Shown one piece after another: positions 7,227-25,100 of a stretch of DNA of 64,000 bases; the first letter of the stretch is position 1, and the number at the start of each line of letters is the position of its first letter. The DNA is from a virus. The notes under the pieces are model-generated. The model saw only the letters and a program-made list of their open reading frames with translations. It was not told where the DNA came from and searched no databases. Both the position numbers and the translations under genes were made by a program. The stretch lies in IMG/VR virus record IMGVR_UViG_3300048854_000126, positions 41,120 through 105,119 of that record. The stretch is one strand, 5' to 3'.

Positions 7227-7260
7227 ATCCACCCGACCGCCGATGCGCGGTCGGGAGAAT
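7227..7260 (+). promoter_or_regulatory. Hairpin-spacer element A
   Basis: ATCC-N24-GAGAAT; stem CCCGACCGC/GCGGTCGGG. Confidence 0.65.
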
Positions 7261-7301
7261 GACTCAATCGGTTGCACGACAACCATCATCGCGAGCACAT
7301 C

Positions 7302-7712
7302 ATGCCGACACCAAATTTTGAATTGCTTAAAGACGCCTACGCGATCATCGACGGCATCCCGGACGAGAACGTCAACCTTAATAGCTGGCGCAGAACCGAT
7401 CGCGGTGCCACATGCGGGACGATTGCCTGCGCCGCCGGTTGGCTCTCGCTGCACCCGCAGTTCAAGGCGCTCGGCCTGAGATACGACAAGGGTGGGGAAA
7501 ACATCGTTTTGGACCAAAGTGTTCACTCCGGCTGGGACGCACTCGCACAAGTGTTTTCGCTAACAAATAGCGATGCGCAACACCTCTTCAAAGGTGCTTA
7601 CCTTGAACCTGTCCACACACATCGTGAGATATTCCTCGAGCGCGTGCGGACCTTTCTGTCCGATCATGGTCAGTTGAAAGAGCAACTCGCCGAGGTGCAG
7701 CATGCGTCCTAA
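7302..7712 (+). CDS. Hypothetical protein, paralog 1 (CGTIACAAGW family)
   Basis: N-terminal half similar to the next gene. Confidence 0.85.
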   Translation: MPTPNFELLKDAYAIIDGIPDENVNLNSWRRTDRGATCGTIACAAGWLSLHPQFKALGLRYDKGGENIVLDQSVHSGWDALAQVFSLTNSDAQHLFKGAYLEPVHTHREIFLERVRTFLSDHGQLKEQLAEVQHAS

Positions 7713-8148
7713 TTTCGAGCGTCTGCGCGACGCGTTCGCCATCATCGACGGGATTCCGAAGAAGGCATTCGATCTCGATATGTGGGTGTCACAACGCGGC
7801 AAAAACAAATCGTGCGGCACGATTGCATGTGCTGCGGGTTGGCTCGCAATGCACCCAAAGATGAATGGATTCGGGCTGACGAACAGCATGGGTGGCGCAC
7901 CAGAATTCAAGGGATTAACCAGCTTCGCCGCACTGCGAGAGTTTTTCCACCTCAATTACCGTGAGGGTGATTTGTTCGAGGCGGCCGGGTCCGGCTATGC
8001 GGACAACGAGCTCCCGAAACACGTCCGTGTTGCGCTGTCTGACAAACAGTTGTGGAAGCGCCGCGTGCTACGTTTGTTCCAGGCATACAACGAGCCGTTC
8101 GACCCAAAGGTTGGCGAGGGCCTGCTGCTGGACGTCAGGGGCGCCTGA
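7702..8148 (+). CDS. Hypothetical protein, paralog 2 (CGTIACAAGW family)
   Basis: Shares PNFE.L.DA.AIIDGIP...CGTIACAAGWL..HP with the previous gene. Confidence 0.85.
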   Translation: MRPNFERLRDAFAIIDGIPKKAFDLDMWVSQRGKNKSCGTIACAAGWLAMHPKMNGFGLTNSMGGAPEFKGLTSFAALREFFHLNYREGDLFEAAGSGYADNELPKHVRVALSDKQLWKRRVLRLFQAYNEPFDPKVGEGLLLDVRGA

Positions 8149-8149
8149 T

Positions 8150-8611
8150 ATGACAGCGCTCCACATTCCCCACCTTGGCGCCGCGCTGACTCTTGCGGAG
8201 GATTGGACGTTCCGGCTGTTCGAAGAGCACCGGAATTCCCCGCTGATCGAGGCGGTCGGCATTACGCACGCATACCGGCTGCTGCCGGACTTCTGGAGCG
8301 GGCCGAGCGCCACGCGTCAAGAGGCAATAGCAAAGTCAAAGTGGCGCCTGGCTGATGGCTCGATACCGACATTTGCTGATCGGTATCTGAGCGGCGACCT
8401 TCAGCATCCTTTGACGCTGCCCGCCGGCGCGCTCCTCACAATCGATCGCATCTTCATTCGCAAGGGCGCCGCCCACTTCGATAGCGTGACGTTCTGGCTG
8501 AAAGCGAAGCAGGTGCCCATCACGATCAACGGCCGGCTGGTGAAGAAGAGCGCGCGCTTCTGGGCGAAGCTGGATGACGTGAACACGATCCAGTTCGTGG
8601 AGGGCGAATGA
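8150..8611 (+). CDS. Hypothetical phage protein
   Basis: ATG 8150 directly after upstream stop; LTIDRIFIRKG..FDSVTF...RFWAKL motif. Confidence 0.8.
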   Translation: MTALHIPHLGAALTLAEDWTFRLFEEHRNSPLIEAVGITHAYRLLPDFWSGPSATRQEAIAKSKWRLADGSIPTFADRYLSGDLQHPLTLPAGALLTIDRIFIRKGAAHFDSVTFWLKAKQVPITINGRLVKKSARFWAKLDDVNTIQFVEGE

Positions 8612-8835
8612 ACACCAAGCCCACAATAGGGCAGCGCGTCTGCCTGAACAACACAGGATACGACCGCTTGTGGCTACGCTCTAGGGAAGCCATCAAGCAA
8701 TCACAAAACATGAGGATCACGGACGTCGAGAACATCAACGCCGGAACGGGTTCCGAGCCGATCTGGATGATCGAGGTCGATCAGCCGCTGATCGACTTCT
8801 TCCTGCTCGATTCCTCAATGGTCGATCCGATTTAG
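8608..8835 (+). CDS. Hypothetical protein
   Basis: ATGA overlap; GGAG RBS. Confidence 0.7.
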   Translation: MNTKPTIGQRVCLNNTGYDRLWLRSREAIKQSQNMRITDVENINAGTGSEPIWMIEVDQPLIDFFLLDSSMVDPI

Positions 8836-9326
8836 CGCAGTTTGTCGAGCACGTCACCCGCTTCACACGCGGCCTCGTCCACGTCAACGGTGAAGCGCGT
8901 GATCTCGTCGACGGGCCACTTCATATCGCTGATGGGTTTTGGTTTGTCTTCGACAACGGGTCTTGTTGTGCGCCCTTGATAGTTCAGGATCTGATCGCCG
9001 TTTGTGTCAGTAGAGGGGTGAGCGTGGATCAGGGCGTTTCGCTGCTCGACGAGAGCCGTGAAGGACGCGTGGACCGCAGTCAGTTCGTCTTTCGAGACAA
9101 ATTGGAAACTCGTCTGCTGGTCGTTAATAACGCTCTCCAGACGCTCGGCAACTTTGCCCGACGTGATCGGCTTGCCCCGCGAATAGGTCGATACAAAACC
9201 GGGCTGCAGGTAGTCGATGATGTAGATGATGGTCCACTCGTAATAGGCGAATAGATAGATAGCTGTCCCGAGACGGGCTGTGTAGCCCGGATCGAAGGGC
9301 ACGCGGAGTTGTAGGTCTTGTGCCAT
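8832..9326 (-). CDS. Opposite-strand moron, HEPN-like protein
   Basis: GAGG RBS; helical protein with E (AYYEW) and RNALIH (Rx4H) motif. Confidence 0.6.
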   Translation of the reverse strand: MAQDLQLRVPFDPGYTARLGTAIYLFAYYEWTIIYIIDYLQPGFVSTYSRGKPITSGKVAERLESVINDQQTSFQFVSKDELTAVHASFTALVEQRNALIHAHPSTDTNGDQILNYQGRTTRPVVEDKPKPISDMKWPVDEITRFTVDVDEAACEAGDVLDKLR

Positions 9327-9417
9327 GTGGCACCTCATTGCAGTTAAAGAGCGGCAATCCTAGCTGGTTGCTTCGCGAGACACAAACAACAGTATGTAAA
9401 CCCGGTCCATGTTGCGG

Positions 9418-9444
9418 TGACTATAATTAGTAACAGATTAGTAA
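9418..9444 (+). promoter_or_regulatory. Degenerate operator(s) overlapping TATAAT
   Basis: TGACTATAAT followed by TTAGTAA-caga-TTAGTAA. Confidence 0.55.
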
Positions 9445-9459
9445 TCATTCGAGGGAAGC

Positions 9460-10035
9460 ATGACCATTATCAGCGGCGTGGACATAGAGACGACCGGGCT
9501 CGACCAGACGGCAGGGCATCGCATCATCGAAGTCGGTGCGCTCCTGTTCGAGCTCGAGTCCGCAAAGTTCCTGGGCAAATACGTCCAGCGCATCAATCCC
9601 CAGCGTCCGATCGACCCGGCGGCGCAAGCGGTGCACGGGATCACGTTCGACATGCTCGCGCACGAGCCGACGTGGGAACAGGTCGCGCCGAACGTTCACC
9701 GTGTGCTGACCGCTGCCCGGTTCATGGCGGGGCACAACGTGCGCGGCTTCGACTGGCCATTCCTCGCGGGCGAGTTCCAGCGCATTGGTATGTCGGTGCC
9801 GGAGATCGAGCTCATCGACACGATGGAGGAGGGCCGCTGGGCCACGCCGCTGGGCAAGCTGCCCAATCTTGGCGAGTTGTGTTTTGCGTGCGGAATCGAC
9901 TACGACCCATCCAAAGCGCACGGCGCCGAATACGACATTGACGTGAACATGAAAGCCTACTTCGCTGCCCGCGCGCAAGGGTTCTTCGGACCCGCGATCG
10001 TGCAGCCTGTTCCCCTCATTCTGGAGGCAGCATGA
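9460..10035 (+). CDS. DEDDh 3'-5' exonuclease (DNA pol III epsilon-like)
   Basis: DIETTG, HN..FD and H.A.YD motifs. Confidence 0.92.
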   Translation: MTIISGVDIETTGLDQTAGHRIIEVGALLFELESAKFLGKYVQRINPQRPIDPAAQAVHGITFDMLAHEPTWEQVAPNVHRVLTAARFMAGHNVRGFDWPFLAGEFQRIGMSVPEIELIDTMEEGRWATPLGKLPNLGELCFACGIDYDPSKAHGAEYDIDVNMKAYFAARAQGFFGPAIVQPVPLILEAA

Positions 10036-10403
10036 GCGACTTCAACTTCGATCTGGAATTCGCGCGCTCCGGCGCACCTGATGCCTGCCGACCGTGGCCG
10101 CACAGCGGTAAGGAGTTCATCGCGTTCTTCGCGGTGCTGCCCGAGGACGCGGGCGACGACGGCCAACGCGTGTGGTGGCTCAACCCGCCCGACTGCGTTC
10201 AGGAGGTCATGTCTGACTACGGGACGATTGGCGTTGTGTCTGATGAGCTTTTTCGCGTCTCCGAGTGCATTGAGCTCCAGACCGCCGGGCTCTACCGCGC
10301 AAAGCTCGCCTTCTTCACCGAGTGCAGCACCGATTACGAAAGCGGCCACGAAGAGTGCGATTACGGCTTCTCCATCATCACCACTGAAAAGGTGCCGACA
10401 TGA
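10032..10403 (+). CDS. Hypothetical acidic protein
   Basis: ATGA overlap; GGAGG RBS. Confidence 0.75.
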   Translation: MSDFNFDLEFARSGAPDACRPWPHSGKEFIAFFAVLPEDAGDDGQRVWWLNPPDCVQEVMSDYGTIGVVSDELFRVSECIELQTAGLYRAKLAFFTECSTDYESGHEECDYGFSIITTEKVPT

Positions 10404-10804
10404 GCGCGATCAAGGTGGACCACCCGGCGTTCGATCGAACGATAGACATTCTCGTGCCGGGCAAACACATCGTTTGCTTCAAAGTGCCGAAGGTAGTCCC
10501 TACCGACGCCGCGAAAGCGTTCGTCGAAGCCTATTCCGCGCTTGTCGACAAGTTCGCAGCGGACCTCGCAGCAATTCCCGGCGCGTCAGCCGCGCGGGAG
10601 TTTGGCGGGCATGTTACTCGGCCAAGCAAGACGTGGCTCTATGCGAAGCCGGCTGCGGAGCAATTCAACGATGACGAAATCGCTGAGATGAAGGCAGCAA
10701 CGCTCGCGGCTTTCCCTGATGGTCGGATTGCCGGCGAATGGCACAACCAATCGAGCGGGTGGCCGGGCTACTCGATTCAAATCGCTCACGGAGATACGGC
10801 ATGA
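10400..10804 (+). CDS. Hypothetical protein
   Basis: ATGA overlap. Confidence 0.75.
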   Translation: MSAIKVDHPAFDRTIDILVPGKHIVCFKVPKVVPTDAAKAFVEAYSALVDKFAADLAAIPGASAAREFGGHVTRPSKTWLYAKPAAEQFNDDEIAEMKAATLAAFPDGRIAGEWHNQSSGWPGYSIQIAHGDTA

Positions 10805-11412
10805 AGCGCCACGAAATCAAGCAACTCCTACTCGACCTGAACCCGCAGACAGTCGCCGAGCATTCGTGCTTCGACCACCACGTTGTCGGCATGGACTACT
10901 TGTGCCTGCACCGCTCGGACAAGCTCACGGTCAAGCTGTATTTCATCGACCCGAAGCACATCAACGCGCCCGCTGGCGACGATCTCGTCATCCCGCATAC
11001 GCACCGCTATGCATTCGAGAGCACGGTCCTCGCTGGCAAGCTCGGGCACATGCAGTTCGAAGAGTGCGGCGCGACTGACCACAACGCCGAAGAGGTCGAG
11101 CGCTTCACCTATGTGCCGGAGGCGAAGACGCGCATTGGCGGGCTGCAGGCGCACATTCGTTTGATCCAGTCGGTCGATCACCGTAGCCACCTCAACCCGT
11201 CCTACTGGTGCGACACAAAGACGATCCACACCCTGGCCGTGCCGCGCGAGCAAGTGCTGCTTGGACTCGTGCAGTTCGCCGATACCGTGCCGACGTCCCA
11301 TGTTTATCTTGAGAAGGGCGGGGAGATGCGTTTTACCGAGCCCCGAACCATGAAGCCAATCGACGCATGGAACATGCGCAACAAGGCGCTCGAAATGATG
11401 GAGCAAGGATGA
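10801..11412 (+). CDS. Cupin-fold-like protein
   Basis: PHTHRYAFESTVLAG and distal IHTL metal-binding cupin pattern. Confidence 0.6.
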   Translation: MKRHEIKQLLLDLNPQTVAEHSCFDHHVVGMDYLCLHRSDKLTVKLYFIDPKHINAPAGDDLVIPHTHRYAFESTVLAGKLGHMQFEECGATDHNAEEVERFTYVPEAKTRIGGLQAHIRLIQSVDHRSHLNPSYWCDTKTIHTLAVPREQVLLGLVQFADTVPTSHVYLEKGGEMRFTEPRTMKPIDAWNMRNKALEMMEQG

Positions 11413-11888
11413 GCAAAGCAAAAGTGAAGGTGATCGTGGAGGGTAAGGCGGGGTCGGGCGCACACAGCGTCGCGCGCCTCATTGCAAATGCTTTGATCGC
11501 TCAAAACGCCGAAGTCCAGGTCAATGAGGATGAGGCCGATCTGTTCTCGAAGGCGCCGATCCGGACGATGGAAGGGCTTACGGTTGACCTGAAGCACAAG
11601 CAACTGCCGCGTGTGAAATCCGACTTGCTGAAGGTCAAGTTATCTCAGGAGGAATGGACTGCGGTGCAGATCATCCGTGGTCGCCGGATGACGGGCCTCG
11701 TCGATCACAAGACTCAGGACGGGCTCTATTACTTCTGGTGCTGGGGCAGTCAACCCACGGGTGCCGACCGCGTGACGGGCAAGACGCCGCTCGAGGCTGC
11801 TGAAGCGCACATGAAGGTCTACGAGCGGTGGGAAGGTGGCACACAGCAAATGTCGATCACCCCAATACGAAAAGCGAGGGCAGCATGA
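11409..11888 (+). CDS. Hypothetical protein
   Basis: ATGA overlap; degenerate P-loop-like GKAGSG at N-terminus. Confidence 0.7.
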   Translation: MSKAKVKVIVEGKAGSGAHSVARLIANALIAQNAEVQVNEDEADLFSKAPIRTMEGLTVDLKHKQLPRVKSDLLKVKLSQEEWTAVQIIRGRRMTGLVDHKTQDGLYYFWCWGSQPTGADRVTGKTPLEAAEAHMKVYERWEGGTQQMSITPIRKARAA

Positions 11889-12058
11889 CTCAGGACGAAA
11901 TCGTTGTAACGATGCTTCACGGTGTAATCGCCCAGATGGAACCCGAACAGCAAAAGCAGATCCGTGACTACGCCGCCGAGCTGCGCGCGAAGGTTGCCGA
12001 CAATCCGACCCTGGCAGTCGCCATCGGTCTGGTCTGCGCAGAGATAGCTGCGCAATAG
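11885..12058 (+). CDS. Small hypothetical protein
   Basis: ATGA overlap; GAGG RBS. Confidence 0.65.
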   Translation: MTQDEIVVTMLHGVIAQMEPEQQKQIRDYAAELRAKVADNPTLAVAIGLVCAEIAAQ

Positions 12059-12066
12059 GAGGACCG

Positions 12067-12273
12067 ATGCGCCGTTACTTCCTCTGTTACACCTACTGGC
12101 GTGCGGACGGGCAGAGCACGCAGGGCGTCGCCTGCACCGAGATCGAGCGGGAGAAGCCGATTTACGGCTTCGAGGACGTCCGGGAGATCATCGCGCTGCT
12201 CAAAGAGCGCGGGAACTTCGAAAACGTGGTGGTCCACAGCTGGCAGCTTTTCGAGGGTCAGCCATGCTCGTGA
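12067..12273 (+). CDS. Small hypothetical protein
   Basis: AGGAGG RBS. Confidence 0.7.
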   Translation: MRRYFLCYTYWRADGQSTQGVACTEIEREKPIYGFEDVREIIALLKERGNFENVVVHSWQLFEGQPCS

Positions 12274-12977
12274 CCGTGATCGCTGACGCATCGTATGACC
12301 ACGGCACGCGCGCCGGCGGGTTCGGTTACTGGGCAGTGTCACAACGCAAGCGCCAGAGCGGTGGTGGCCCGTTTAAATCGCTCTCGCGCAACAACAACGT
12401 CGCCGAGATGATGGCGCTGATGAACGGCGTGCACATGGCGTTCGTTCACGGTGTCGCTTTCCCGGGCGACGCAATCCTCGCGCAAACCGACTGCACCGCG
12501 GCGATCCTGGCATTCGAGGGTAAGCGTGTCCTGATGAACGACGAGAAAATTCTGGTCGAAGGGCTGCAAACGCTTTTAAAGCTTAAGGGCGCGACGATCC
12601 GGTTCAAGCACGTCAAGGGCCATACGAACGGGGCCGAGCCCCGCCTATGGGTCAATAACGCGTGTGATGCGGTCGCAAAACGGGGAATGCACGCCGCGCG
12701 GGACCGGGCGCGCACTGAGCGCATGCCTTTGCTTAGTGAGGTGCCAACGCCGCCGAAGCCAGTCAAGTCGCCCGAGCAGCGCGCCGAAAAGCGTGCGCAG
12801 AAGCAGGTGATCCGCAAGCAGGATCAACAAAACCGGCGCACTTTCGCCTTCAATCAAAAGGAGTGGGAATCGTATGTCCTGGACCCCGAGCTTTCATCAA
12901 TTCCGCCTTGGGCGGAACAAGAGCTACCTGAACAGCGTGTGGCTGGGAACGATCTGGTCGGCGCTCACGCTGCCTGA
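12264..12977 (+). CDS. Ribonuclease HI-like protein with disordered C-terminal tail
   Basis: DAS, AEM.A, TDC, HVKGH and N..CD..AK RNase H motifs. Confidence 0.88.
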   Translation: MLVTVIADASYDHGTRAGGFGYWAVSQRKRQSGGGPFKSLSRNNNVAEMMALMNGVHMAFVHGVAFPGDAILAQTDCTAAILAFEGKRVLMNDEKILVEGLQTLLKLKGATIRFKHVKGHTNGAEPRLWVNNACDAVAKRGMHAARDRARTERMPLLSEVPTPPKPVKSPEQRAEKRAQKQVIRKQDQQNRRTFAFNQKEWESYVLDPELSSIPPWAEQELPEQRVAGNDLVGAHAA

Positions 12978-13143
12978 GATCCTGCTGTTCAGCTTCATCG
13001 TGCCCAGTTGCTACCGCCCGCGCACGGCCCTCGTGCGTGTGTGGGCAACGCTCGTGCTCGTCGTGAAGTTGCCCGTCTTCGGGTTGCTCGGTGGTGTGAA
13101 GAGCGAGGACGTGTCGGTCGACGAAATGATGTCGCAGACTGGT

Positions 13144-13476
13144 CTAGGTCGGGCTGCGGAAGGAGGGACGTGCGAGTAAAGACTTCGAGGCAATGATGGA
13201 GCTTGCCTCCATCTCAGGCCTTTCCCCATCAATCCTTCTATTGGCGTCAAGCAATCGGTCAATCGTGCGGCGAGCCTGCTTAAGTGCTTGCTCGATCACT
13301 CGCTCCGCGGTTGCGCAGTCGACAGATCTCAAGGCATCGGGCGGGATCGGTGTCTGTCTGTTTTGCCCTTTTATACCGATCGTCAATCGCATGACCATCG
13401 GGGGTTCACCGTCCGTATCTGCGACATCGACGTTAATATCGAATGCTCGATAAGTCTCACTATGCGTTTGCGCCAT
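13144..13476 (-). CDS. Opposite-strand moron, hypothetical protein
   Basis: 110-aa ORF in a lower-GC island. Confidence 0.6.
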   Translation of the reverse strand: MAQTHSETYRAFDINVDVADTDGEPPMVMRLTIGIKGQNRQTPIPPDALRSVDCATAERVIEQALKQARRTIDRLLDANRRIDGERPEMEASSIIASKSLLARPSFRSPT

Positions 13477-13562
13477 CGATGTCGTCTCGGTTATTGCAAT
13501 AATCCTACCATGGCGCAGCGCGTAAATGTGTTGTAAACGCAGACATTAGGGTTCCTCTTAGT

Positions 13563-13772
13563 TTAATGACTATCGCACCATTTCTCGGCCCAAAAGCGCG
13601 CGAATCCGAGAGCAAGCGCTTCTGTATCAAAAGAACGAAGGTAGCCCGACTTGGTTCCGCTCGCTTCCAGGCCAACAGATGCGGGCCGCGAGATTGTCGC
13701 TTGTCCTAAAAAGCCACCGGCAGTTTGGGATACGCAGCACTCGACGTTGAACGAGTCGTATTTAAAATGCAT
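13563..13772 (-). CDS. Opposite-strand moron, small hypothetical protein
   Basis: AGGAGG RBS; 69 aa. Confidence 0.65.
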   Translation of the reverse strand: MHFKYDSFNVECCVSQTAGGFLGQATISRPASVGLEASGTKSGYLRSFDTEALALGFARFWAEKWCDSH

Positions 13773-13981
13773 GAATCCTCCTATTTAAGGAAATTTCAGT
13801 ATGCGCCTATTAAATTGCGGCGGCAGAGCCTTTGAGAGAATCGCGTCAAGGCGTTCGAATCTTGAGGGGTTCATCGCTGTTAGTCGCGAGACGCATGTCA
13901 TCCACGGTGCGGAAATCGTTGAACAGGCAAATGAGACAGGAGTGGCATTAACATTCGCCACCAGACTCTAAAGGCTGTGAC

Positions 13982-14167
13982 ATGAACAAGGCTTACGCGT
14001 CGGTGGTAGTTCTCGTCTGGTTCGGAGCATCCGCCGTTATCTACGATTTTTTGGATGGGGCCGGCGACTACGATGTCGTGATGTCGCTCCTATTAGGAGC
14101 GGGGGCGACTTGGCTTCCCATCACTGTCTATGAAATTTGCTCCAACCGGGACGGTCCTGGTAAATGA
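13982..14167 (+). CDS. Small two-TM membrane protein
   Basis: Two hydrophobic segments. Confidence 0.55.
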   Translation: MNKAYASVVVLVWFGASAVIYDFLDGAGDYDVVMSLLLGAGATWLPITVYEICSNRDGPGK

Positions 14168-14228
14168 CAACCGGGAAGATCCCGGACACTGCGGGAAGTT
14201 TGCCGCGCCTCGAAAAAAGGAGTTGAAC

Positions 14229-14932: not shown

Positions 14933-14949
14933 TGACCTAATGCGACGAA

Positions 14950-15189: not shown

Positions 15190-15225
15190 GATGAATTGCC
15201 GTTTCTCAGAACGGCACAGCGTGGT

Positions 15226-15258
15226 AAAAATTGGGGCACCTTCGGGTGCCCATTTTTT
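15226..15258. terminator. Bidirectional intrinsic terminator
   Basis: A-run, GGGCACC-ttcg-GGTGCCC, T-run, between convergent genes. Confidence 0.75.
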
Positions 15259-16834: not shown

Positions 16835-16843
16835 AGGCGGGCA

Positions 16844-16866: not shown

Positions 16867-17048
16867 TGCCCACGGTGCAACGCCGTGGCAGGTATCAGCG
16901 TGCCACCCCTCCCGTATTACCCCTTCCCATAACGTCAATCGTCTATCTACGAGTAGGCCCGGGTGCGGCAGTTCGGTAAAAAGTTGCACCGTTCGCGCAA
17001 CTTCTTGCAGAAACCCAGAGGGCCAGGGTTCGGCGTGCCTATACTGGA

Positions 17049-17066
17049 ATAGTAAGCAATGACTAA
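17049..17066. promoter_or_regulatory. Operator copy
   Basis: ATAGTAA-gcaa-TGACTAA, after TATACT. Confidence 0.8.
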
Positions 17067-17113
17067 TCATTGCCTCGCTTTCATAGCGACAATTTAGTCA
17101 CCGAAACGACCCA

Positions 17114-17770
17114 ATGAGCACCGCAATGATCGTCCGAACGCTTACCTGTGCCGAACACAAAGACTATGGATTCATGGGCTGGCGCCCGAACTGGATTCCG
17201 CACTTCGACCCTTCATCCGGGCTGGGTGTCGCGCATGACGTCCTTGAACACGCACGCCGTGATCCGGGAACGATCGAGTCCGAATTCCAAGCGTTCGGCG
17301 CGATCGTCTGGTTGCGCGGCGAGAGCGGCTGGTTCTACGAGCACCGCCCGCACGCGTCCGATATCGCCTGGCAGATGGCGAGCGACTTCATGCAGCAAGC
17401 CGAGTATCTCGACGGCGAAGGTCGAAAGCTGCATCGCGCGCCGAAGACCCGGCCGCTTGCCTACGACGGTGCGGAAGACATGGTGCAGCGCTGCGTCACG
17501 AAAGGCTTGGCGTTGATCCGCTCCGAGCATGAGGACGGCTACCTGCATGGGCTGATCGACCGCGAGTCGGCAGTGAGTTACATGCGCATGGGTTATCGCG
17601 CCGCCGAGCGCCGGCTTGGCGACAGTTGCGGGGCGGCCAGTCTGTTCGACCGCATCTCGGAGGGCGCTGATCGCCACCTGAAGAACGCGGAGCCCGGCAT
17701 GGAGCTCACGTTGCGCGTCGATACGCGTGCCTTCCGGGTGCAGATGGACGTCGATTACCCGAACGACTAA
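17114..17770 (+). CDS. Hypothetical phage protein with HDxxEH motif
   Basis: GLGVAHDVLEH...EFQAFGA. Confidence 0.8.
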   Translation: MSTAMIVRTLTCAEHKDYGFMGWRPNWIPHFDPSSGLGVAHDVLEHARRDPGTIESEFQAFGAIVWLRGESGWFYEHRPHASDIAWQMASDFMQQAEYLDGEGRKLHRAPKTRPLAYDGAEDMVQRCVTKGLALIRSEHEDGYLHGLIDRESAVSYMRMGYRAAERRLGDSCGAASLFDRISEGADRHLKNAEPGMELTLRVDTRAFRVQMDVDYPND

Positions 17771-17813
17771 TCCGACCGGGCGCCATGCGCCCGTTTCGAG
17801 AATAACCACATCG
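17770..17813 (+). promoter_or_regulatory. Hairpin-spacer element B
   Basis: ATCC-N24-GAGAAT-aacc-ACATCG; stem CGGGCGC/GCGCCCG. Confidence 0.7.
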
Positions 17814-17833
17814 CAATCATCACGGGACCAACC

Positions 17834-18454: not shown

Positions 18455-18458
18455 TCGC

Positions 18459-18502
18459 ATCCGCATGAGCGCCTACGGGCGCTCGGGAAAATCAATACAT
18501 CG
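18459..18502 (+). promoter_or_regulatory. Hairpin-spacer element C
   Basis: ATCC-N24-GAAAAT-caat-ACATCG; stem GAGCGCC/GGCGCTC. Confidence 0.7.
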
Positions 18503-18525
18503 ACAACAAACGCGAGAGCGAAACG

Positions 18526-19071
18526 ATGAACACCGTGCCTACCCTGCAAAACGATGCGCCGTATGCCTACGCCTTTGCGCGCGCCGAGCATGACTTTGCC
18601 GAAATCAAGATCGCGCTGCGCCGCATTGTGACGGGCTCCTTCAGCTATCTGTTTTCGTCGGAGCTGGTGATGCGCTGCTATGTGAGCCGCGAGTTCGACA
18701 CGCCTTATGGCGTGAAATTGGTGCTCGACGGCGGTCATCAGATGGAGATGGCCGAGCTCACCGCCGCAATGAAGGTGATGACGTCGATCGCCAAGAAGCT
18801 CAAGAAGATGGAGGACGAGCTCGGTTACACGAACGACCGTGATCTGCCTGAGTTCGCGCGCCGCGTGCTGGTCGCATCGGGCATCCGGACGGTGTTCTAC
18901 GAGCGGAAGTTCAATCAGGGCGCCGTCGATCGCAACGGGCTGACACTCAAGGATGGGATTTTCGGGCTGCCGAGCGTCGATCCGCGCGATGGGAAGGACT
19001 TCCTCTTTGCGATTCGCGGGCTCACCGACGACACCCTGGAGAAGCGGGGCATGAAGAAGGAGCCGGCATGA
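18526..19071 (+). CDS. Hypothetical protein
   Basis: 181-aa ORF. Confidence 0.8.
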   Translation: MNTVPTLQNDAPYAYAFARAEHDFAEIKIALRRIVTGSFSYLFSSELVMRCYVSREFDTPYGVKLVLDGGHQMEMAELTAAMKVMTSIAKKLKKMEDELGYTNDRDLPEFARRVLVASGIRTVFYERKFNQGAVDRNGLTLKDGIFGLPSVDPRDGKDFLFAIRGLTDDTLEKRGMKKEPA

Positions 19072-19508
19072 GCACGGCCGCACAGCAGGTCCAGATGTTC
19101 TACGACGCGGTGAGCCGCGCGGGCGAAGTCAACGTGACCTTCCTCGATCTGGTGAAGGACGGGATGACACGCGAGGAGCTCGCCAAGAACATCGCGCGCC
19201 GACCGAGCCTCTGGCAGCGGTTCGAGCATTGGTTGCCGCTGCTGCCTAGCATCCCGCCGGCTATCCACGATCGCCCGCTCGCTGCGGAAGGGCTACTCAG
19301 CTACCGATGCAAGGGCCGCTACGGCTGGATCATGATCGGCGCAAAAGATCATGACGACGCCATGCGTGAAGCTCGCCGCAGTAGCAACGACGTCACGGAA
19401 GCGGCCCTCGAAATCTGGGACGGCGAGCGTTACGTCCCGGTAGCCCGTGCGAGCCGAGAACCATTCCCAGCGGTCCTCGAGCGTGCCATCGCATGCTCGG
19501 GAAAATGA
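19068..19508 (+). CDS. Hypothetical protein, apparently two small fused domains
   Basis: ATGA overlap; AGGAG RBS. Confidence 0.75.
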   Translation: MSTAAQQVQMFYDAVSRAGEVNVTFLDLVKDGMTREELAKNIARRPSLWQRFEHWLPLLPSIPPAIHDRPLAAEGLLSYRCKGRYGWIMIGAKDHDDAMREARRSSNDVTEAALEIWDGERYVPVARASREPFPAVLERAIACSGK

Positions 19509-19516
19509 AGACATCG
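19473..19516 (+). promoter_or_regulatory. Hairpin-spacer element D
   Basis: GTCC-N24-GAAAAT-gaag-ACATCG; stem CGAGCGTGC/GCATGCTCG with one G-T pair. Confidence 0.7.
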
Positions 19517-19540
19517 ATAACGCACACAGGGAGTGCAGAC

Positions 19541-19861
19541 ATGGCAAAAGCTAAGACCCCGCTCTATCTCATCAACCTCGAAGGGGGCGGCGACACGGAT
19601 ATCACCGTGGTGAACAAGGATGTGTTCGATTGGATCGGGAGCGACTTTAGTTGCAACGCCGGGGAATACAGCCGGGACGAAACCATTCCCGGCACCGACG
19701 TCGTGGTGAATGTGACCTGCGGCAGCTTCGACAACGATCGTGCGCTGGCCGCCTCCGCGCACTTCACCGAGCAGGGATTCAGCACGATCAAAGCGGCACT
19801 CGCCTACATCAAGGAACAACGTGGCGAGTTGGCTGACGAGTATCACGGCTGCATCTATTGA
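19541..19861 (+). CDS. Hypothetical protein
   Basis: GGGAG RBS before ATG 19541. Confidence 0.8.
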   Translation: MAKAKTPLYLINLEGGGDTDITVVNKDVFDWIGSDFSCNAGEYSRDETIPGTDVVVNVTCGSFDNDRALAASAHFTEQGFSTIKAALAYIKEQRGELADEYHGCIY

Positions 19862-19870
19862 ACAGCACGC

Positions 19871-19914
19871 ATCCTCCCGAGCTCCACAGCGTGCTCGGGA
19901 GAATGAACACATCG
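19871..19914 (+). promoter_or_regulatory. Hairpin-spacer element E
   Basis: ATCC-N24-GAGAAT-gaac-ACATCG; stem TCCCGAGC/GCTCGGGA. Confidence 0.7.
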
Positions 19915-19947
19915 AAACAAAGCGCATAAGCGCGAGAGAGAAGAGCG

Positions 19948-20280
19948 ATGGAATGGATCATTACGAAGGACTTGATCGCCGAGCCCGGTGAGAAGACGCG
20001 CGTTGGATACGGCGCGTTGATGAGCGCCACCGTGCTGATGCTTCCGCCCAAGGGTGCACCAGACCGCCGTGCTGCGAAAGAAGCGTATGTCGCCACGCTG
20101 CCGTATGAGTTCCGCCTGTATGACGACGATAACGTCCTCTACTACGAGGGCCGTTGCGGGGATATCACCAACGTGGGCGAGGAAGAGGCGTTCGCTCCGC
20201 AAGACTGGGCGATGAACGATGCCGGCTGCACCTCCACACAGTATCGCAAGGTCGGCGCGAGCAAATGGGAGGATCTGTAA
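19948..20280 (+). CDS. Hypothetical phage protein
   Basis: FRLYDDD..LYYEG...P.DWAM.DAGCT pattern. Confidence 0.8.
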   Translation: MEWIITKDLIAEPGEKTRVGYGALMSATVLMLPPKGAPDRRAAKEAYVATLPYEFRLYDDDNVLYYEGRCGDITNVGEEEAFAPQDWAMNDAGCTSTQYRKVGASKWEDL

Positions 20281-20621
20281 TGGCTATCAAGATCATCGAA
20301 GCCGTGCGCAACATGATCGTCGCCGCCCGCGCTCACGACGCGACGCTGAACGATCCGCTTGGTGACGGGTCGGGCTCCGAGTCGCAGGCGCCCGAAGGCT
20401 GCGACTACAACATCCTGCTCGGCGAGATCGAGAAGGTGGCGCTGGAACTTGCCGAGATGACTTTCGCCACGCCCGAGCAGTTGACCGCTGCACGCGCCGC
20501 GTATGCACTGCGCAGCGACGACAACCTGGAGATCGACGAAGAGGCGCTCGTCTCGGAAGGCGAGGGCGGCGTCTGGGTCCAAGCCTGGGTGTGGATGTCG
20601 GACGAGGAGATGCCGCAATGA
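20280..20621 (+). CDS. Hypothetical acidic protein
   Basis: TAATG overlap; EIDE.A.VS....G.WVQAWVW pattern. Confidence 0.8.
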   Translation: MAIKIIEAVRNMIVAARAHDATLNDPLGDGSGSESQAPEGCDYNILLGEIEKVALELAEMTFATPEQLTAARAAYALRSDDNLEIDEEALVSEGEGGVWVQAWVWMSDEEMPQ

Positions 20622-20920
20622 AGCCAGAAAAACGGGAAAAGATGACGACGGCGCTGCTTGCGAAGATCGACGCAGCAATGCTGACCGATGCTGATATGCG
20701 CCGCGAGGCGATCGTCGAGGGCCGGATTGGCTTGAAAGAAATGAGCGACGAGGAGTTCGAGGACTTCGCGCTCGATAGCTACAACCTGGACGAGCAGAAT
20801 AACTTCTGCGACCAGTGCGGCGCTGCCAGCGATGACGGGGAAGGCGAGAACGGGCTGTGCGGCAATTGTGCCGACAAGCTCTACAACGACGATGGCGAAT
20901 TGATCGGAGAGAAGAAGTAA
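20618..20920 (+). CDS. Hypothetical protein with CxxC...CxxC zinc ribbon
   Basis: ATGA overlap; CDQC and CGNC. Confidence 0.75.
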   Translation: MKPEKREKMTTALLAKIDAAMLTDADMRREAIVEGRIGLKEMSDEEFEDFALDSYNLDEQNNFCDQCGAASDDGEGENGLCGNCADKLYNDDGELIGEKK

Positions 20921-21282
20921 TGCACCTCACGAAAAAAGAACGCGCTCTGCAGAAGGTCCGCATGACACCGCTTCAGCGAATCAGCATCAATCGCCCGCTT
21001 CGTCGGAGCGCATCCGTGCCGCGCAGCGACCTGTATCCGGAGATTGACCAGACCGCCAAGGGTGAACTGCACGGTAAATGCAACGTCACGGCATGCGCTG
21101 AGCGGGGCGAGGACGTCAAGTGGTGGAACCGCCCAATGCGGGCGCACTACTGCTCCTATTGCAAGCGCGAGATCAGCCGGTTCGATGACTACCTCGGCAC
21201 AGACCAAGCGATCTTCGAAACGAGTCCGCGCGAGAAGCTGTCGGGCCACGAAATCACGTCGATCATCATTGACGAAGCGTAA
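20920..21282 (+). CDS. Hypothetical Cys-containing protein
   Basis: TAATG overlap; KG..G.CNVTAC...YC.YC. Confidence 0.75.
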   Translation: MHLTKKERALQKVRMTPLQRISINRPLRRSASVPRSDLYPEIDQTAKGELHGKCNVTACAERGEDVKWWNRPMRAHYCSYCKREISRFDDYLGTDQAIFETSPREKLSGHEITSIIIDEA

Positions 21283-21335
21283 CTAACCGAGCGCGCATGA
21301 GGGCGCATCGATAACACATTCAATGAGGAGCACTG

Positions 21336-21557
21336 ATGGCTGGCTACGACTGCGTGGAGCGCGCGATTGCGCACGGGGATGACCCGTCCAACAACGGGAA
21401 TGGCTACGCACTGCGCGTCACGCTGAATAGCGGCGTTCAGTTCGAAGGTCCGGTTGGGGATCTGATCAGTGAGACGGAGACGTTGAAGCTCCAGATCCTG
21501 TCGCTCGACATCTTCATCAACTGCGCCGAGGTGGCGGCCGCCGAGGTCGTCTGGTGA
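21336..21557 (+). CDS. Small beta-rich (Sm/LSm-like?) protein
   Basis: GAGGAG RBS; RVTL.SG..F.G.V...IFIN..EV pattern. Confidence 0.7.
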   Translation: MAGYDCVERAIAHGDDPSNNGNGYALRVTLNSGVQFEGPVGDLISETETLKLQILSLDIFINCAEVAAAEVVW

Positions 21558-21844
21558 GTAAAAGTCCATTCGACGCGCAGCCGCCGCGTTATCTCGCCTA
21601 CTGCCATGCGCAGGGCACGACGCCCGAAGCACAACGAATCGCCGACGCGAAGCGTTACGGCGGCTCTTGGAGCATGCCATACGTCTATTGGGTGCGGCAT
21701 GAGATGGCGGAGTGGTGCAAGTTGAACGGGCGTTTTCGCCTTGAGATGGATTGGAATGACCACACCGTGTTCAGCGAGTGGCTGTCCAAGAAGTATCCGC
21801 CGCCGGCGCGCGAGCGATACATCCGACATTGGGCCGCGCGCTGA
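21554..21844 (+). CDS. Hypothetical protein
   Basis: GTGA overlap; PRYLAYC.A.G.TPE. Confidence 0.75.
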   Translation: MSKSPFDAQPPRYLAYCHAQGTTPEAQRIADAKRYGGSWSMPYVYWVRHEMAEWCKLNGRFRLEMDWNDHTVFSEWLSKKYPPPARERYIRHWAAR

Positions 21845-21907
21845 CGGTGATGCCGCCGCATATTGCGACACCAACTTCGAGTCGATACCTCCTGCTAAGG
21901 GCCACCC

Positions 21908-22228
21908 ATGAAACTCATTCTCCGCAACGGATATCCGTTCCCGTTTCCAACGAACATCAGCGAGCGCGCAAGCGACGAAATCGCTGACGCAGCGAATGGC
22001 GTTCACCTGGACATCGACGGCGTGACGCACTTCGAATGGGTGCATACCGTGACCATCGAATTCGAATCGCGTGAGGCATGCGAGCGCGCCATCGAGCTCA
22101 CGGGCTGGAACTACTGGGATGAGGAGCGCATGGTGCTCGAAGCCATGACGTCAGCGGGAGACGGCTACGGCCACCCGGCGATCGTCGTGCGCGACAAAGC
22201 GTATTGCGGATTCACGGTGCTGAGCTAA
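21908..22228 (+). CDS. Hypothetical protein
   Basis: AAGGG RBS; 106 aa. Confidence 0.75.
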   Translation: MKLILRNGYPFPFPTNISERASDEIADAANGVHLDIDGVTHFEWVHTVTIEFESREACERAIELTGWNYWDEERMVLEAMTSAGDGYGHPAIVVRDKAYCGFTVLS

Positions 22229-22230
22229 GC

Positions 22231-22264
22231 ATCCACGCGGGCGCCGAGCCTGCGTCGGGATACT
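22231..22264 (+). promoter_or_regulatory. Hairpin-spacer element F
   Basis: ATCC-N24-GATACT; stem ACGCGGGC/GCCTGCGT. Confidence 0.65.
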
Positions 22265-22293
22265 TAAATCTCTCCCACCGAACGAGACATATC

Positions 22294-22593
22294 ATGCGCA
22301 TCAAAGACGCCACGCCCGAACAAGCCGAAAACGCATTGCGGGCCTACTGCGAGAAGCTCGCGCCCGACGCCATCATTGATGACGAGTTCGGGCGCCGTCT
22401 GGGTGATGCGGATCTGATCGCTTACCTGATCGAACAGGAAGTCGGACACTCCACGTGTCCGCTCCTTGCTGACCTCTACCCAAGCGGGCCGATCAGTCTC
22501 GAACAAGCCAAAGCAAATTGGGATGCGAAGTCGGATATCGAAAAGCGCATGGAGCAGGTCTCGTTCGTCGCGCCGCCACACTGTTACTTCTGA
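22294..22593 (+). CDS. Hypothetical protein
   Basis: ATG 22294 downstream of element F. Confidence 0.7.
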   Translation: MRIKDATPEQAENALRAYCEKLAPDAIIDDEFGRRLGDADLIAYLIEQEVGHSTCPLLADLYPSGPISLEQAKANWDAKSDIEKRMEQVSFVAPPHCYF

Positions 22594-22601
22594 ACCGGTC
22601 C

Positions 22602-22865
22602 TCACTTCCTCAGCCGCCCGATATCGCCCACGCGCTGCCTCTCCCGAATGAGGAGGTAGTGCATCTGTTCCAAGGCAGCGAGACGCCCAAGCTTCGCTTC
22701 GCCAAATGCCCGCCGTGCGACGTCGCAGAATTCATGGAGCACGTCCTGCGTGTGACGCATCCGATGGACCTCCAATAGCAAGCGTCTGACCATAGGGTCG
22801 CGGTTGGTTTTCCACAGATGCCGCATCTCACCAATGGTGACCGGATCGAAGTCGTCAATGTCCAT
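22602..22865 (-). CDS. Small helical protein, predicted SOS-inducible
   Basis: 87-aa ORF with a LexA box ~15 bp upstream. Confidence 0.75.
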   Translation of the reverse strand: MDIDDFDPVTIGEMRHLWKTNRDPMVRRLLLEVHRMRHTQDVLHEFCDVARRAFGEAKLGRLAALEQMHYLLIRERQRVGDIGRLRK

Positions 22866-22879
22866 GATCGGGTGCCTAA

Positions 22880-22899
22880 TACTGTATGGATGAACAGTA
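22880..22899. promoter_or_regulatory. LexA (SOS) box
   Basis: TACTGTATGGATGAACAGTA fits CTGT-N8-ACAG; overlaps minus-strand TATACT -10 at 22896-22901. Confidence 0.85.
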
Positions 22900-23374
22900 T
22901 AAGCGTGCTTCCCGAGTCGGAAATAACCGCCGTTATTTCATGGTCGGAGCAGGGTAGGGCGAGCCCGAACATAAGCCATTGAATACAAACGTCTTTCGCC
23001 TGATTCGGTGTGACCGTCGGTTTCGGGCCAATTGCAGAGCCATTTCGTAACGTGGAACGAATGGTCTGTCGCGCTAAAAGCCCGTGCCAAGCCCGCCTCA
23101 TTCTTCCCGGTAAGCGAATGAGCTAAACCTCAAACGGGCCCGATGCCGACCCGTTCAAGAGCCCGCAGACTGATAGCTAATACAGCCCCGTTCGCTCGAT
23201 TCATTTTCCCGGTATGAGAAAGAGGACAAAGCGAACAGTTGGCAAGAACGCCGACACCGACAAAGCCGACCCAATCGCGGACGAGAACACCGCCGACATA
23301 GAGAACGATCCACCATAGATAGATCATCCGGGTGTAGAGACTCGACACTCCACATACACAGCTATACGCATTGC

Positions 23375-23949
23375 TCCACGTATAAGAACACCAATCCGCT
23401 CTATAAGGTCTCCGGGCTTTGGGTCCACGTATAAGAACTCCAGCGATTGGGGGCCGATCGTTGTCTTTCAATCGACGCTTGCCAGGATTTTCTTATACCT
23501 AGCGCGGGCCGGTGCCGAGGGCATGACCGTTGCTGAATGGAGGCAGCACCCCTCCAAGGCATGCCATGAAAGCAACAATAACCTCCTTCTACTTTGCGGC
23601 AGTCCACGGCTTTACTGACCCGCATCCGTTCTTCGGCTTCGACCTCGAAGAACACGGGGCGGTCATTCGCTCGGACATCATCTCTCTTCGCACAGCGCGC
23701 ATTCTGGCGCAGGAGCTGGGCCGCGGAGCAGCGTTCGTCAAGATGCTCAAAGCCATTATGGAATGCCCGCCAAGTGATTACGGGCTGTTGGTCGGCCAGG
23801 TGTTCGAAGATTGAGAGCGACAAAATCCAATCAGGTCCGTGGCTGAAATTCCGAGGACGCGCGGCCCGGTAGGAGCGCCTTGGCTCCCTATAAGGTTCGC
23901 CCGGCCCTATAAGGTTTGGCCCGTCTCCCTATAAGAATGCCCTATAAGG
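23375..23949 (+). repeat. TATAAG-core direct repeats
   Basis: TCCACGTATAAGAAC at 23375 and 23424; CTATAAGG at 23401; CCCTATAAGR at 23886, 23905, 23927, 23940. Confidence 0.85.
23566..23814 (+). CDS. Hypothetical protein
   Basis: ORF between the two repeat clusters. Confidence 0.55.
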   Translation: MKATITSFYFAAVHGFTDPHPFFGFDLEEHGAVIRSDIISLRTARILAQELGRGAAFVKMLKAIMECPPSDYGLLVGQVFED

Positions 23950-24013
23950 TTCGGGGATCTCTGCATTAGAGATTTGGGCAGTAGAATGAATGCCCCTTTC
24001 CGAGGAGACCAAA

Positions 24014-24352
24014 ATGAAGAAGTGGCATGTGTATGAAACCAGCTATATCGACTGGGCGTGGAGCGCACTGCGATCGGTCGATGAAACGCGGGCTGTTCTC
24101 GCGGACAACGTGAATGAAGAATGGAGCGATCTTAGCCAGCACCCGGTCGATGAATTCGATGCGGACTTTGGCGAGGCAAAGCGCCTCGCTTCTGAGGAAG
24201 GCTGGGAAGGGGACTATCGACAAGGCCCCGTCGTCTTTTGGCTGCCTGACCCGAACTACAACTCTTTCGTATATGGCTTCTTCTGGAAGCAGGACAATAA
24301 TGGCACCTGCTACACCGTGTCGCCTCATCCGCTGCCTTGGTTGGAGGATTGA
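24014..24352 (+). CDS. Hypothetical protein, paralog 1 (ends SP.PLPWLED)
   Basis: GAGGAG RBS; similar to next gene. Confidence 0.8.
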   Translation: MKKWHVYETSYIDWAWSALRSVDETRAVLADNVNEEWSDLSQHPVDEFDADFGEAKRLASEEGWEGDYRQGPVVFWLPDPNYNSFVYGFFWKQDNNGTCYTVSPHPLPWLED

Positions 24353-24354
24353 TC

Positions 24355-24666
24355 ATGGATTGGATCATTTATCGAATTGAGCGCCCCGCAAACGAACTGA
24401 ACTGGATGCGCACTTCCACCGAGATCGTCGAGCGCGCCGCTGCGGACGACGACACCATGGTCGCCGCCATTGTGGAAGCCGAACTCGATGCGGCTTTCGA
24501 GGCAGCGCGCCAAGCGGGCTGGGACGGCGAGATGGACGAGGAGCCGCATGCCTTCGTGCTGCCGGCGAAGGACGAGTTCCGGTTCGGGTTCGTCTGGACG
24601 TGCCCTGACCCGGACAAACCAGTCGTCATTGCATCGCCGTTGCCACTGCCTTGGCTTGAAGACTAA
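24355..24666 (+). CDS. Hypothetical protein, paralog 2 (ends SP.PLPWLED)
   Basis: GGAGG RBS; shared GW.G...P..F.LP...GF.W motif. Confidence 0.8.
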   Translation: MDWIIYRIERPANELNWMRTSTEIVERAAADDDTMVAAIVEAELDAAFEAARQAGWDGEMDEEPHAFVLPAKDEFRFGFVWTCPDPDKPVVIASPLPLPWLED

Positions 24667-24735
24667 AAAGAGATCGTCAGTGGGGCATCCAAGGCCCTGC
24701 TGGCGGTTGTGATATCTGTTTGGACGCGTAACAGC

Positions 24736-24778
24736 GTCCGCCCGGGTTTCTCATCCCGATCCCGGACATTAAGCTCAC
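24736..24778 (+). promoter_or_regulatory. Hairpin-spacer element H (variant)
   Basis: GTCC-N25-GACATT-AAGCTCAC; stem CCGGG/CCCGG. Confidence 0.45.
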
Positions 24779-24973
24779 TTGCAAACGAGCTCCACACATG
24801 CCCGCTAGATCGGGTCATGAGCCGCTTGTCCCGTCGTTCATCTCACGGGCCACGGCGGTCCAGGCGAAAAAGAGCCGACACGAATGCCGGCCGGGGAATC
24901 ACCTGGCATCGGAATACCGGGCGACAAAAACAGCCACTTGGGCTACTCAGCATCTCCTGTGCCCGCTGATCAT

Positions 24974-25003
24974 AAAAAAGGGCCGGCACGCTGGTGCCGG
25001 CCC
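24974..25003 (-). terminator. Minus-strand intrinsic terminator
   Basis: 10-bp stem GGGCCGGCAC/GTGCCGGCCC preceded by AAAAAA on the + strand. Confidence 0.65.
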
Positions 25004-25056
25004 GTCGAATCGCCTAGCACCCGGGGAAAGCGCTAGGCGAGTAACCACATGCATAC

Positions 25057-25100
25057 ATCCGAGCATCAGCCGTTCCCGAGTCTCGAAAATAAAAGCTCAC
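25057..25100 (+). promoter_or_regulatory. Hairpin-spacer element G (weak stem)
   Basis: ATCC-N24-GAAAAT-aa-AAGCTCAC. Confidence 0.55.

Follow-up and report, generated by a model that had tools for sequence, protein, structure and literature searches.

The element family described here consists of short intergenic repeats in a 64,000-nt stretch (the window, bases 41120-105119) of the 105,119-nt soil phage genome IMGVR_UViG_3300048854_000126 (IMG/VR, GC ~0.60). Each repeat appears to belong to a promoter-and-leader module of about 70 nt that would start the transcript of the small gene behind it, the most likely reader being the host core RNA polymerase carrying a sigma-like protein of the phage, and we give this reading a probability of about 0.6. 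The initial annotation had seen in the repeats a phage-specific promoter class with a fixed geometry, in which a hairpin takes the place of the -35 box. On present evidence they are a well-defined but ordinary feature, namely a repeated phage promoter with an accessory stem-loop.

That the fixed-geometry family is real is readily seen from the counts, since RTCC-N24-GARAAT has six exact matches in the window (7227, 17770, 18459, 19473, 19871 and 25057), all on the + strand, against an expected 0.43 +/- 0.64 and a maximum of two in 100 shuffles. A profile scan of the whole genome gives seven strong copies of 24-41 bits, likewise all on the + strand and all at window 7227-25107, including the GATACT copy at 22231, which is a strong match at 35 bits. 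The copies and one doubtful variant are the following, in window coordinates, with open reading frame abbreviated to ORF and minimum free energy to MFE.

7227..7275, + strand: copy 1, core at 7227-7260 followed by the start of the leader; 35 bits, 9-bp stem; starts 11 nt past the stop of the 6914-7216 gene, next ATG at 7302.
17770..17818, + strand: copy 2; 31 bits, left-shifted 7-bp stem, followed by N4-ACATCG; the upstream TAA stop ends in its first A, next ATG at 17834.
18459..18507, + strand: copy 3; 35 bits, 7-8-bp stem, followed by N4-ACATCG; starts 5 nt past the upstream stop, next ATG at 18526.
19473..19521, + strand: copy 4, of GTCC form; 32 bits, 9-bp stem including one G-T pair; overlaps the final 35 nt of the ORF at 19068-19508, next ATG at 19541.
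19871..19919, + strand: copy 5; 41 bits, 8-bp stem; starts 10 nt past the upstream stop, next ATG at 19948 (gene family f28).
22231..22279, + strand: copy 6, of GATACT form with a TCTC-type leader; 35 bits, 8-bp stem with one G-T pair; starts 3 nt past the upstream stop, next ATG at 22294.
25057..25105, + strand: copy 7; 24 bits, no real hairpin (MFE -4 kcal/mol); ~55 nt past the canonical terminator at 24980-25003, next ATG at 25121 (gene family f40).
24736..24770, + strand: N25 variant, doubtful, matched by a loose regular expression only.

The N25 variant had been listed beside the seven elements, but it has no profile match at all, and the ORF downstream of it is of poor coding quality and looks non-coding. 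The N4-ACATCG continuation described for four copies is indeed present, and the six stems that had been named are the MFE stems. Searches with Pfam and PHROGs assigned no function to the genes behind the elements, and the Rfam covariance models matched no element, their sole hit lying elsewhere (15089-15257) and far below threshold. A 16-bit element-like match is also found outside the window, at genome 9560-9593, inside a coding region and 109 nt before the next gene; it is retained as coding sequence at the orthologous places in every relative and probably arose by chance and was then fixed by constraint on the protein.

Pattern scans of the viral collection yielded four related genomes of 105-108 kb with ~77% nucleotide identity in the element region (G001, G005, G006 and the first half of G002), which together with the own genome makes five phages; a 16-base pattern scan returned mostly chance matches, yet gave the first two of these relatives. 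Near-identical phage records were not found, and a search for related loci with the 181-aa neighbour gene gave no match. Each related genome holds 6-9 copies, always on the gene strand, and the profile collects 37 copies from the five phages, all co-oriented with genes, besides which degraded forms occur (TTCC, AGCC, GAAGAT and copies lacking ATCC). The G002 record (IMGVR_UViG_3300046694_000296, 215,656 nt) consists of two different genomes of the phage group placed one after the other, the second half being nearly identical to G001 and the first half representing a third phage, so that the record is either an assembly chimera or a mixed concatemer. A 106-kb plasmid of Cupriavidus metallidurans belongs to the same supergroup and carries a diverged form of the element, which is present in the C. 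metallidurans plasmids NZ_CP090528.1 and NZ_CP083720.1; a nucleotide search of plasmid sequences returned Cupriavidus relatives only. The phage is probably an SSU5-like phage-plasmid. Its portal protein shares 47-53% identity with the portal proteins of SSU5-like phage-plasmids, Pseudomonas phage nickie and Rhizobium phage RHEph10, and its genome has the siphovirus markers of a tape-measure and J-type tail-fibre proteins. The host is probably a member of the Burkholderiaceae, since homologs of one phage protein occur in Paraburkholderia, Burkholderia and Cupriavidus records.

The 37 copies align without gaps, and conservation falls in discrete blocks comprising A(-4), RTCC (1-4), K13-C14-C15-R16, T25-C26-G27-G28, the hexamer G29-A30-n-A32-M33-T34, C40-A41 and A46-A47. 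Within the spacer C14-C15 is invariant and K13 and R16 are nearly so, while columns 6-11 are variable, and in the hexamer A30 and T34, corresponding to A-11 and T-7 of a -10 box, are invariant in all copies. The KCC and RTCC blocks lie 13 and 24 nt upstream of the hexamer, respectively, and the conserved blocks recur with a period of ~11-12 nt. Following the hexamer by 6-7 nt is a C-A step (C40 in 25/33 copies, A41 in 22/33), after which a CA-rich leader of the form ACATCGMAACCACA is conserved. The distance from ATCC to the start codon is 62-72 nt in 30/37 copies, and in the own genome the element ends 28-43 nt upstream of the next start codon, in good agreement with the 20-45 nt given initially. 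From this block layout and start-codon distance the whole module can be estimated at ~70 nt, made up of promoter-like blocks, a probable transcription start at the C-A and a leader of 25-30 nt.

A second class of boxes, here called class I, is formed by nine copies of the extended -10 sequence TGACTATAMT, which precede operons on the + strand, have TAGTAA-like words to both sides and probably constitute a repressor-controlled promoter class of host sigma-70. Downstream of such boxes, at ~40 nt, four of the phages (own, B, C and E) have half-elements consisting of GCC-N13-GAnAAT and the leader and lacking ATCC.

Window 2150, 3765, 6330, 9418 and 17036, + strand: class I boxes inside the window.
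Genome 9159, 20299, 29842 and 34397, + strand: class I boxes upstream of the window, in genome coordinates.
Window 17036..17045, + strand: class I box TGCCTATACT, a canonical extended -10, promoter-like.
Window 17058..17109, + strand: half-element GCC-N13-GACAAT with leader but no ATCC, following the class I promoter at 17036 by ~40 nt.
Genome 24299-24955 (L024:1447-2103), 16,164-16,820 nt before the window start: sigma-like ORF of 218 aa.

Since the half-elements do without ATCC, the KCC block, the hexamer and the leader would seem to be the core of the element. The Cupriavidus form reads nGCC-N9-CC-N13-GACACT (or GAACAT, CAAACT)-N4-CCATCGAAACCACAAC and stands ahead of orthologous genes such as f28; a comparison with the form of our five phages shows that CC is retained at 14-15, as are the nAnAnT hexamer and the leader, while ATCC, TCGGGA and the hairpin are not shared. 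The pattern CC-N9-CC-N13-GAnAMT-N6-WTC is matched on one strand 5 times in the own genome, 6 times in G005 and 3 times in the Cupriavidus plasmid, as compared to 0 for the reversed control, and 0 times in phages nickie and RHEph10.

The notion that the elements are promoters thus rests on linear features. GAnAMT would be the -10 box of a sigma-70-family factor, with A-11 and T-7 invariant and G instead of T at -12, and in addition the C-A is a Y-R start candidate that lies within the 5-8 nt downstream expected of a sigma-70 -10; transcription would start at about position 41. No second block is present 16-18 nt upstream of the -10, where sigma-70 has its -35, and KCC (~-27) and RTCC (~-39) may instead be contacted by a phage factor. 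A consensus scan called none of the elements a sigma-70 promoter and none a U-tract terminator, the stems being followed by GGGARAAT, in keeping with what the initial annotation had said on both counts. The same scan called canonical terminators elsewhere (6863-6878, 15234-15251 and 24980-25003), and because canonical promoters and U-tract terminators exist separately in this genome, the elements can be regarded as a distinct class. A sigma-54 (-24/-12) reading of GCC-N10-CGG was discarded, as the sequences do not match TGGCAC-N5-TTGC, and so was an extracytoplasmic function (ECF) sigma reading (AAC / CGTC, 16-17-nt spacer), to which the blocks do not fit.

The best candidate for a reader is the 218-aa ORF, which may be a diverged sigma-70-family protein. 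It lies between a gene for a MoxR-type ATPase and a run of ORFs ending in a 1114-aa ORF, itself syntenic with a gene annotated dnaE in the Cupriavidus plasmid, and a canonical TGACTATAAT promoter at genome 20299 heads the operon that holds the ATPase gene and the sigma-like ORF. Its sole Pfam match is Sigma70_r2 at 16-18 bits, below the 24-bit cut-off, and PF04545 (region 4) gave no match, while the region 2 signature FDP..G..FS.Y is kept. In a profile search of the PDB nearly all matches are sigma factors, at region 2, and every one of the best 50 Foldseek rows is a sigma factor, with alignments spanning ~230-245 columns, roughly the full length, at E ~0.02 (all >0.01) and a TM score of 0.25; some homologs have been named sigma24 by JGI. 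The gene is present in 5/5 phages and, in the same operon position, in Cupriavidus plasmids, and homologs occur also in contigs of Paraburkholderia sp. RCC_158 and Burkholderia sp. MSMB1072. A tblastn search of the whole phage collection, nickie and RHEph10 included, found no homolog, and none was confirmed in the GTDB species genomes.

Elements and sigma-like gene thus co-occur in 6/6 carriers, and this, together with the precedent of phages phiEco32 and 7-11, suggests a two-step cascade, possibly with a co-activator, in which the canonical TGACTATAAT promoter would drive the sigma-like protein and the protein in turn the elements, although the suggestion is a weak one, since none of the known sigma geometries matches the spacing of the blocks.

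A possible, though improbable, alternative is that the elements are read by the host sigma-70 holoenzyme with the aid of a phage activator or appropriator that binds the RTCC, KCC and TC blocks at their 11-12-nt spacing, the sigma-like protein then serving other genes, for instance late ones. Such an arrangement would resemble the MotA/AsiA middle promoters of T4, PhoB-type direct-repeat boxes and the Lpa-dependent late promoters of P1. The hexamer indeed keeps A-11, A-9, A/C-8 and T-7 of the sigma-70 consensus, with a G at -14, the blocks recur every ~11-12 nt, and KCC at 13 nt before the hexamer is close to where the MotA box of T4 middle promoters is placed, 11-13 bp before the hexamer. As to the activator, the 345-aa gene at window 15797-16834, ahead of the element array, and a 204-aa gene following the sigma-like gene (L024:2103-2717) share a C-terminal domain (PHROG 3932/3616), whose weak predicted-structure neighbours in the Protein Atlas include winged-helix proteins at TM < 0.55. 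These similarities are however below reliable thresholds, the invariant G at -12 is unfavourable for sigma-70, and elements and sigma-like gene are found together in 6/6 carriers. The genes at 27340 and 15797, proposed initially as activators, both lack a family assignment, and the sigma-70-family gene outside the window is a better candidate.

What remains of the original promoter hypothesis is its -10-like box and its ATCC determinant, which are supported as far as geometry, orientation and distribution go, and not the hairpin in the role of a -35. The hairpin as such is statistically real: the mean for the seven own copies is -14.9 kcal/mol, where column shuffles give -8.5 +/- 1.0 (0/1000), and with one copy per ortholog group the folding z is -6.8. 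Orthologous copies furthermore often have different but still pairing stems, for example the four before f25 and those before f28, among them copy 5 at 19871, the stem of which differs in its orthologs in relatives B, C and D. Pairing is in this respect kept beyond shuffles, as had been claimed, but the spacer sequence is not free to drift, since C14-C15 is invariant and TCGG conserved; because of the conserved T25-C26-G27-G28, part of the 3' arm of the hairpin is conserved sequence. Nor is the structure conserved in a fixed place. The i+j of the main helix spans 30 to 38 with loops of 3-7 nt, a helix fixed at i+j = 35 is paired in 54% of cells and does no better than shuffles (56/500), and one fixed at i+j = 31 is paired in 55% with only modest covariation. 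A stem-loop is present in ~60% of the 37 copies and weak in the other ~40%. The copies of the f40 promoter, retained in 5/5 phages and represented in the own genome by copy 7, have MFE values of only -2 to -10 kcal/mol, and most Cupriavidus copies fold weakly.

These observations bear directly on the idea that the GC-rich inverted repeat is extruded as a cruciform or single-strand hairpin and recognised as such, in the manner of the N4 early promoters. In most copies of the own genome the inverted repeat has its centre at ~-23, and this speaks for the idea, as do the excess of complementarity over column shuffles and the pairing of diverged orthologous stems. Nevertheless we consider the idea very unlikely, since neither register nor loop size is constant, the hairpin is weak in many copies including the f40 promoter and most of those from Cupriavidus, and what is constant is the linear spacing of 24 nt, whereas the geometry following extrusion would vary between copies. 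Among the ORFs, furthermore, none is seen for a giant virion RNA polymerase, and the largest encode a tail fibre (1714 aa), a tape measure (1505 aa) and the 1114-aa protein; a PF00940 search for such a polymerase had no match, but the control of the same search was silent as well. Considering the variable register, the lack of any fixed-column helix and the weak folding of the f40 and most Cupriavidus copies, the hairpin is most likely not part of promoter recognition and does not replace the -35. Recognition would rather be of linear DNA, as the 24-nt spacing is invariant whatever the stem and the distance from RTCC to hexamer would vary per copy after extrusion.

A function of the hairpin in the upstream gene seems more likely. 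Copies that overlap a co-directional stop codon or lie <=25 nt from one have a mean of -14.4 kcal/mol (n=22) as compared to -7.5 kcal/mol in the other copies (n=15; p = 0.0007, the copies not being independent), and because the hairpin occupies a spacer position that is not contacted and is strong mainly right after a co-directional stop, it may well belong to the upstream gene, as a 3'-end or insulator hairpin that lies within the spacer of the next promoter. It would then act on the upstream transcript as a 3'-end stabiliser, a pause site or a leaky terminator insulating neighbouring cassettes. The sense strand is more stable in 21 copies and the antisense in 11 (p = 0.04), and counts of G-U pairs are equal; since the two strands fold about equally well, action of the hairpin at the RNA level and at the DNA level cannot be separated by sequence. 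A pseudoknot between loop and ACATCG leader was also considered and was rejected, as it fits the copy at 7227 only.

It could on the other hand be argued that the entire element is a signal within polycistronic class I transcripts, mediating processing, stabilisation or translational control, perhaps by way of an Hfq-like protein or an endoribonuclease, and that no initiation takes place there. Across genera no part is better conserved than the leader ACATCGMAACCACA, the half-elements with their leader follow class I promoters by ~40 nt and are thus probably transcribed, the hairpins come directly after stop codons, and the slight excess of copies folding better in sense has the expected direction. 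We find this unlikely all the same, because the invariant positions form discrete blocks at fixed linear spacing and include a -10-like hexamer, because the stem register is not fixed to the conserved bases as it is in protein-recognised hairpins, and because the hairpin is missing in conserved copies; the absence of Rfam matches and the equal G-U counts on the two strands likewise speak against it. The nut-like reading among the initial alternatives has no support, and the same applies to an attC-like one.

The question of whether the elements delimit mobile gene cassettes was approached by mapping gene order in the five phages, which reveals a conserved backbone with many single-gene differences, all own copies falling within a hyperplastic region in which the genes are small and variable. 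At element junctions 76% of the informative comparisons show a break in adjacency, versus 61% elsewhere, and the figures are 75% versus 60% when only junctions with a gap of >=40 nt are considered, these figures being derived from crude gene calls and non-independent comparisons. One clean indel was found, in that relatives C and D have f33-[element]-f83-[element]-f65 where B has f33-[element]-f65, and the 5' side of the B element matches the first element of C while its 3' side and leader match the second. The f83 indel accordingly has the appearance of a gene indel flanked by two copies, the crossover falling within the motif, as known from the stem-loop promoters of T4-type phages discussed below. 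The suggestion that the elements are cassette junctions is therefore supported to the extent of one clean two-element indel and a modest enrichment of synteny breaks, and because the modules are repeated in one orientation they may serve as substrates for recombination that adds or removes units of an element and a gene. That they are attC-like sites of site-specific recombination is hardly credible, even if their location at gene junctions of the hyperplastic region, the loss of exactly one unit of element and gene in the f83 indel and the enriched synteny breaks could be cited in its favour. The elements measure 34-50 nt, have a 7-9-bp stem and lack R''/L''-L'/R' organisation, the aligned copies contain no GTTRRRY core, no explanation would be had for the -10-like box, the leader and the constant start-codon distance, and the indel is accounted for by homologous recombination between repeats.

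We may then weigh the promoter reading as a whole. It is partly supported by the co-orientation of the copies with genes, the near-fixed distance to the start codon, the invariant A-11 and T-7, the C-A at the putative start, the separate existence of class I promoters and the sigma-like gene in every carrier. Several points nonetheless tell against a sigma-like protein reading the elements as promoters. Start site, sigma dependence and terminator activity are all inferred from sequence, the positions of KCC and RTCC 13 and 24 nt before the hexamer fit neither sigma-70 nor ECF spacing, and the sigma assignment is based on weak scores (Pfam 16-18 bits; Foldseek E ~0.02, TM 0.25). The hairpins have no U-tract and are therefore not canonical terminators, no clear strand asymmetry (21 sense versus 11 antisense; equal G-U counts) places them at the RNA level, and a signal at the RNA level would be compatible too with the conserved leader and with the half-elements that follow class I promoters. 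Moreover, the statistics for hairpin position and for synteny use non-independent orthologous copies and crude gene calls. A more elaborate version, in which a terminator-like hairpin and the next promoter are superimposed such that read-through or supercoiling folds or extrudes the spacer and thereby switches the promoter, which would be read by a private phage sigma factor through an unprecedented three-block (-39/-27/-12) pattern, seems to us decidedly improbable.

Three further features of the genome deserve mention. Clusters of iteron-like direct repeats of the CCTATAAG / CGTATAAGAAC type are found at window 23340-23960 and 26860-26950, where they flank small ORFs and precede the 27340 gene, and they probably mark the replication or partition region of the phage-plasmid. 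A long inverted repeat, TTGTCACTTTTTGGGGTTTCCC ... GGGAACCCCCAAAAAGTGACAA, surrounds an AT-rich stretch at window 39058-39152 in the gap before the terminase genes, and may be a packaging or late-control site. A perfect TAGTAACCTGTTACTA palindrome is located at window 44893.

Among known systems the closest in behaviour are the promoter-early and promoter-middle stem loops (PeSL and PmSL) of T4-type phages (Arbiol et al. 2010, PMC2839356; Comeau et al. 2014, PMC4122927). Like these, the elements are composites of a short stem-loop and a promoter, placed in one orientation between small ORFans of a hyperplastic region, their stems vary while the promoter blocks are retained, degraded or partial copies occur, and single-gene indels are flanked by two copies. 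They differ in that the phage is an SSU5-like siphovirus or phage-plasmid and not a T4-like myovirus, that the promoter is neither TTGACA-N17-TATAAT nor a Mot box, that the stem-loop is nested between RTCC and the -10 instead of lying upstream of the promoter and has no T-run, and that a conserved leader belongs to the module.

With respect to recognition, phage sigma factors with a private consensus are known, such as gp36 of phiEco32 (tAATGTAtA) and gp47 of 7-11 (GTAAtg-N16-aCTA) (PMC8948821). The likeness lies in a diverged sigma-70-family gene, a few promoters with a consensus unlike that of the host, and, apart from these, a small group of host sigma-70 promoters that would act at the start of the cascade. 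However, sigma activity and promoters are here predicted ones, the three blocks RTCC, KCC and TCGGGAnAMT fit neither a single-element nor an N16 bipartite pattern, and the targets are small accessory genes and not late structural genes.

The N4 early hairpin promoters also have a GC-rich inverted repeat upstream of the presumed start and no -35, but in the present case no virion RNA polymerase is seen among the ORFs, stem register and loop size are variable, and the hairpin is dispensable in conserved copies. In the late promoters of P1, which depend on Lpa, a -10 box is combined with an inverted repeat near -22 in place of the -35, and this repeat is conserved as a protein site. P1 is likewise a phage-plasmid, and the -10 box and the inverted repeat near -22 instead of a -35 are common to both, whereas the stems of our elements vary between copies and only KCC within them is fixed.

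By analogy, the elements probably work like PeSLs and are read like private phage-sigma promoters. Strictly they are members of neither family, on account of their lineage, the lack of a sigma-70 or Mot consensus, the nested stem, the missing T-run and the unusual three-block spacing, but they are not a new kind of system. Nor, as far as their features tell, are they N4-type hairpin promoters, intrinsic terminators, attC sites or representatives of any Rfam family.

If the promoter reading is true, SSU5-like phage-plasmids of Burkholderiaceae would for the first time have a promoter consensus and a regulatory cascade, the latter leading from host-type TGACTATAMT promoters by way of a phage sigma-like factor to the elements, and the odd spacing of the blocks would be of interest for how sigma factors recognise promoters. 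The reading would also mean that regulatory cassettes which shuffle accessory genes in the style of PeSLs are not confined to T4-type phages.

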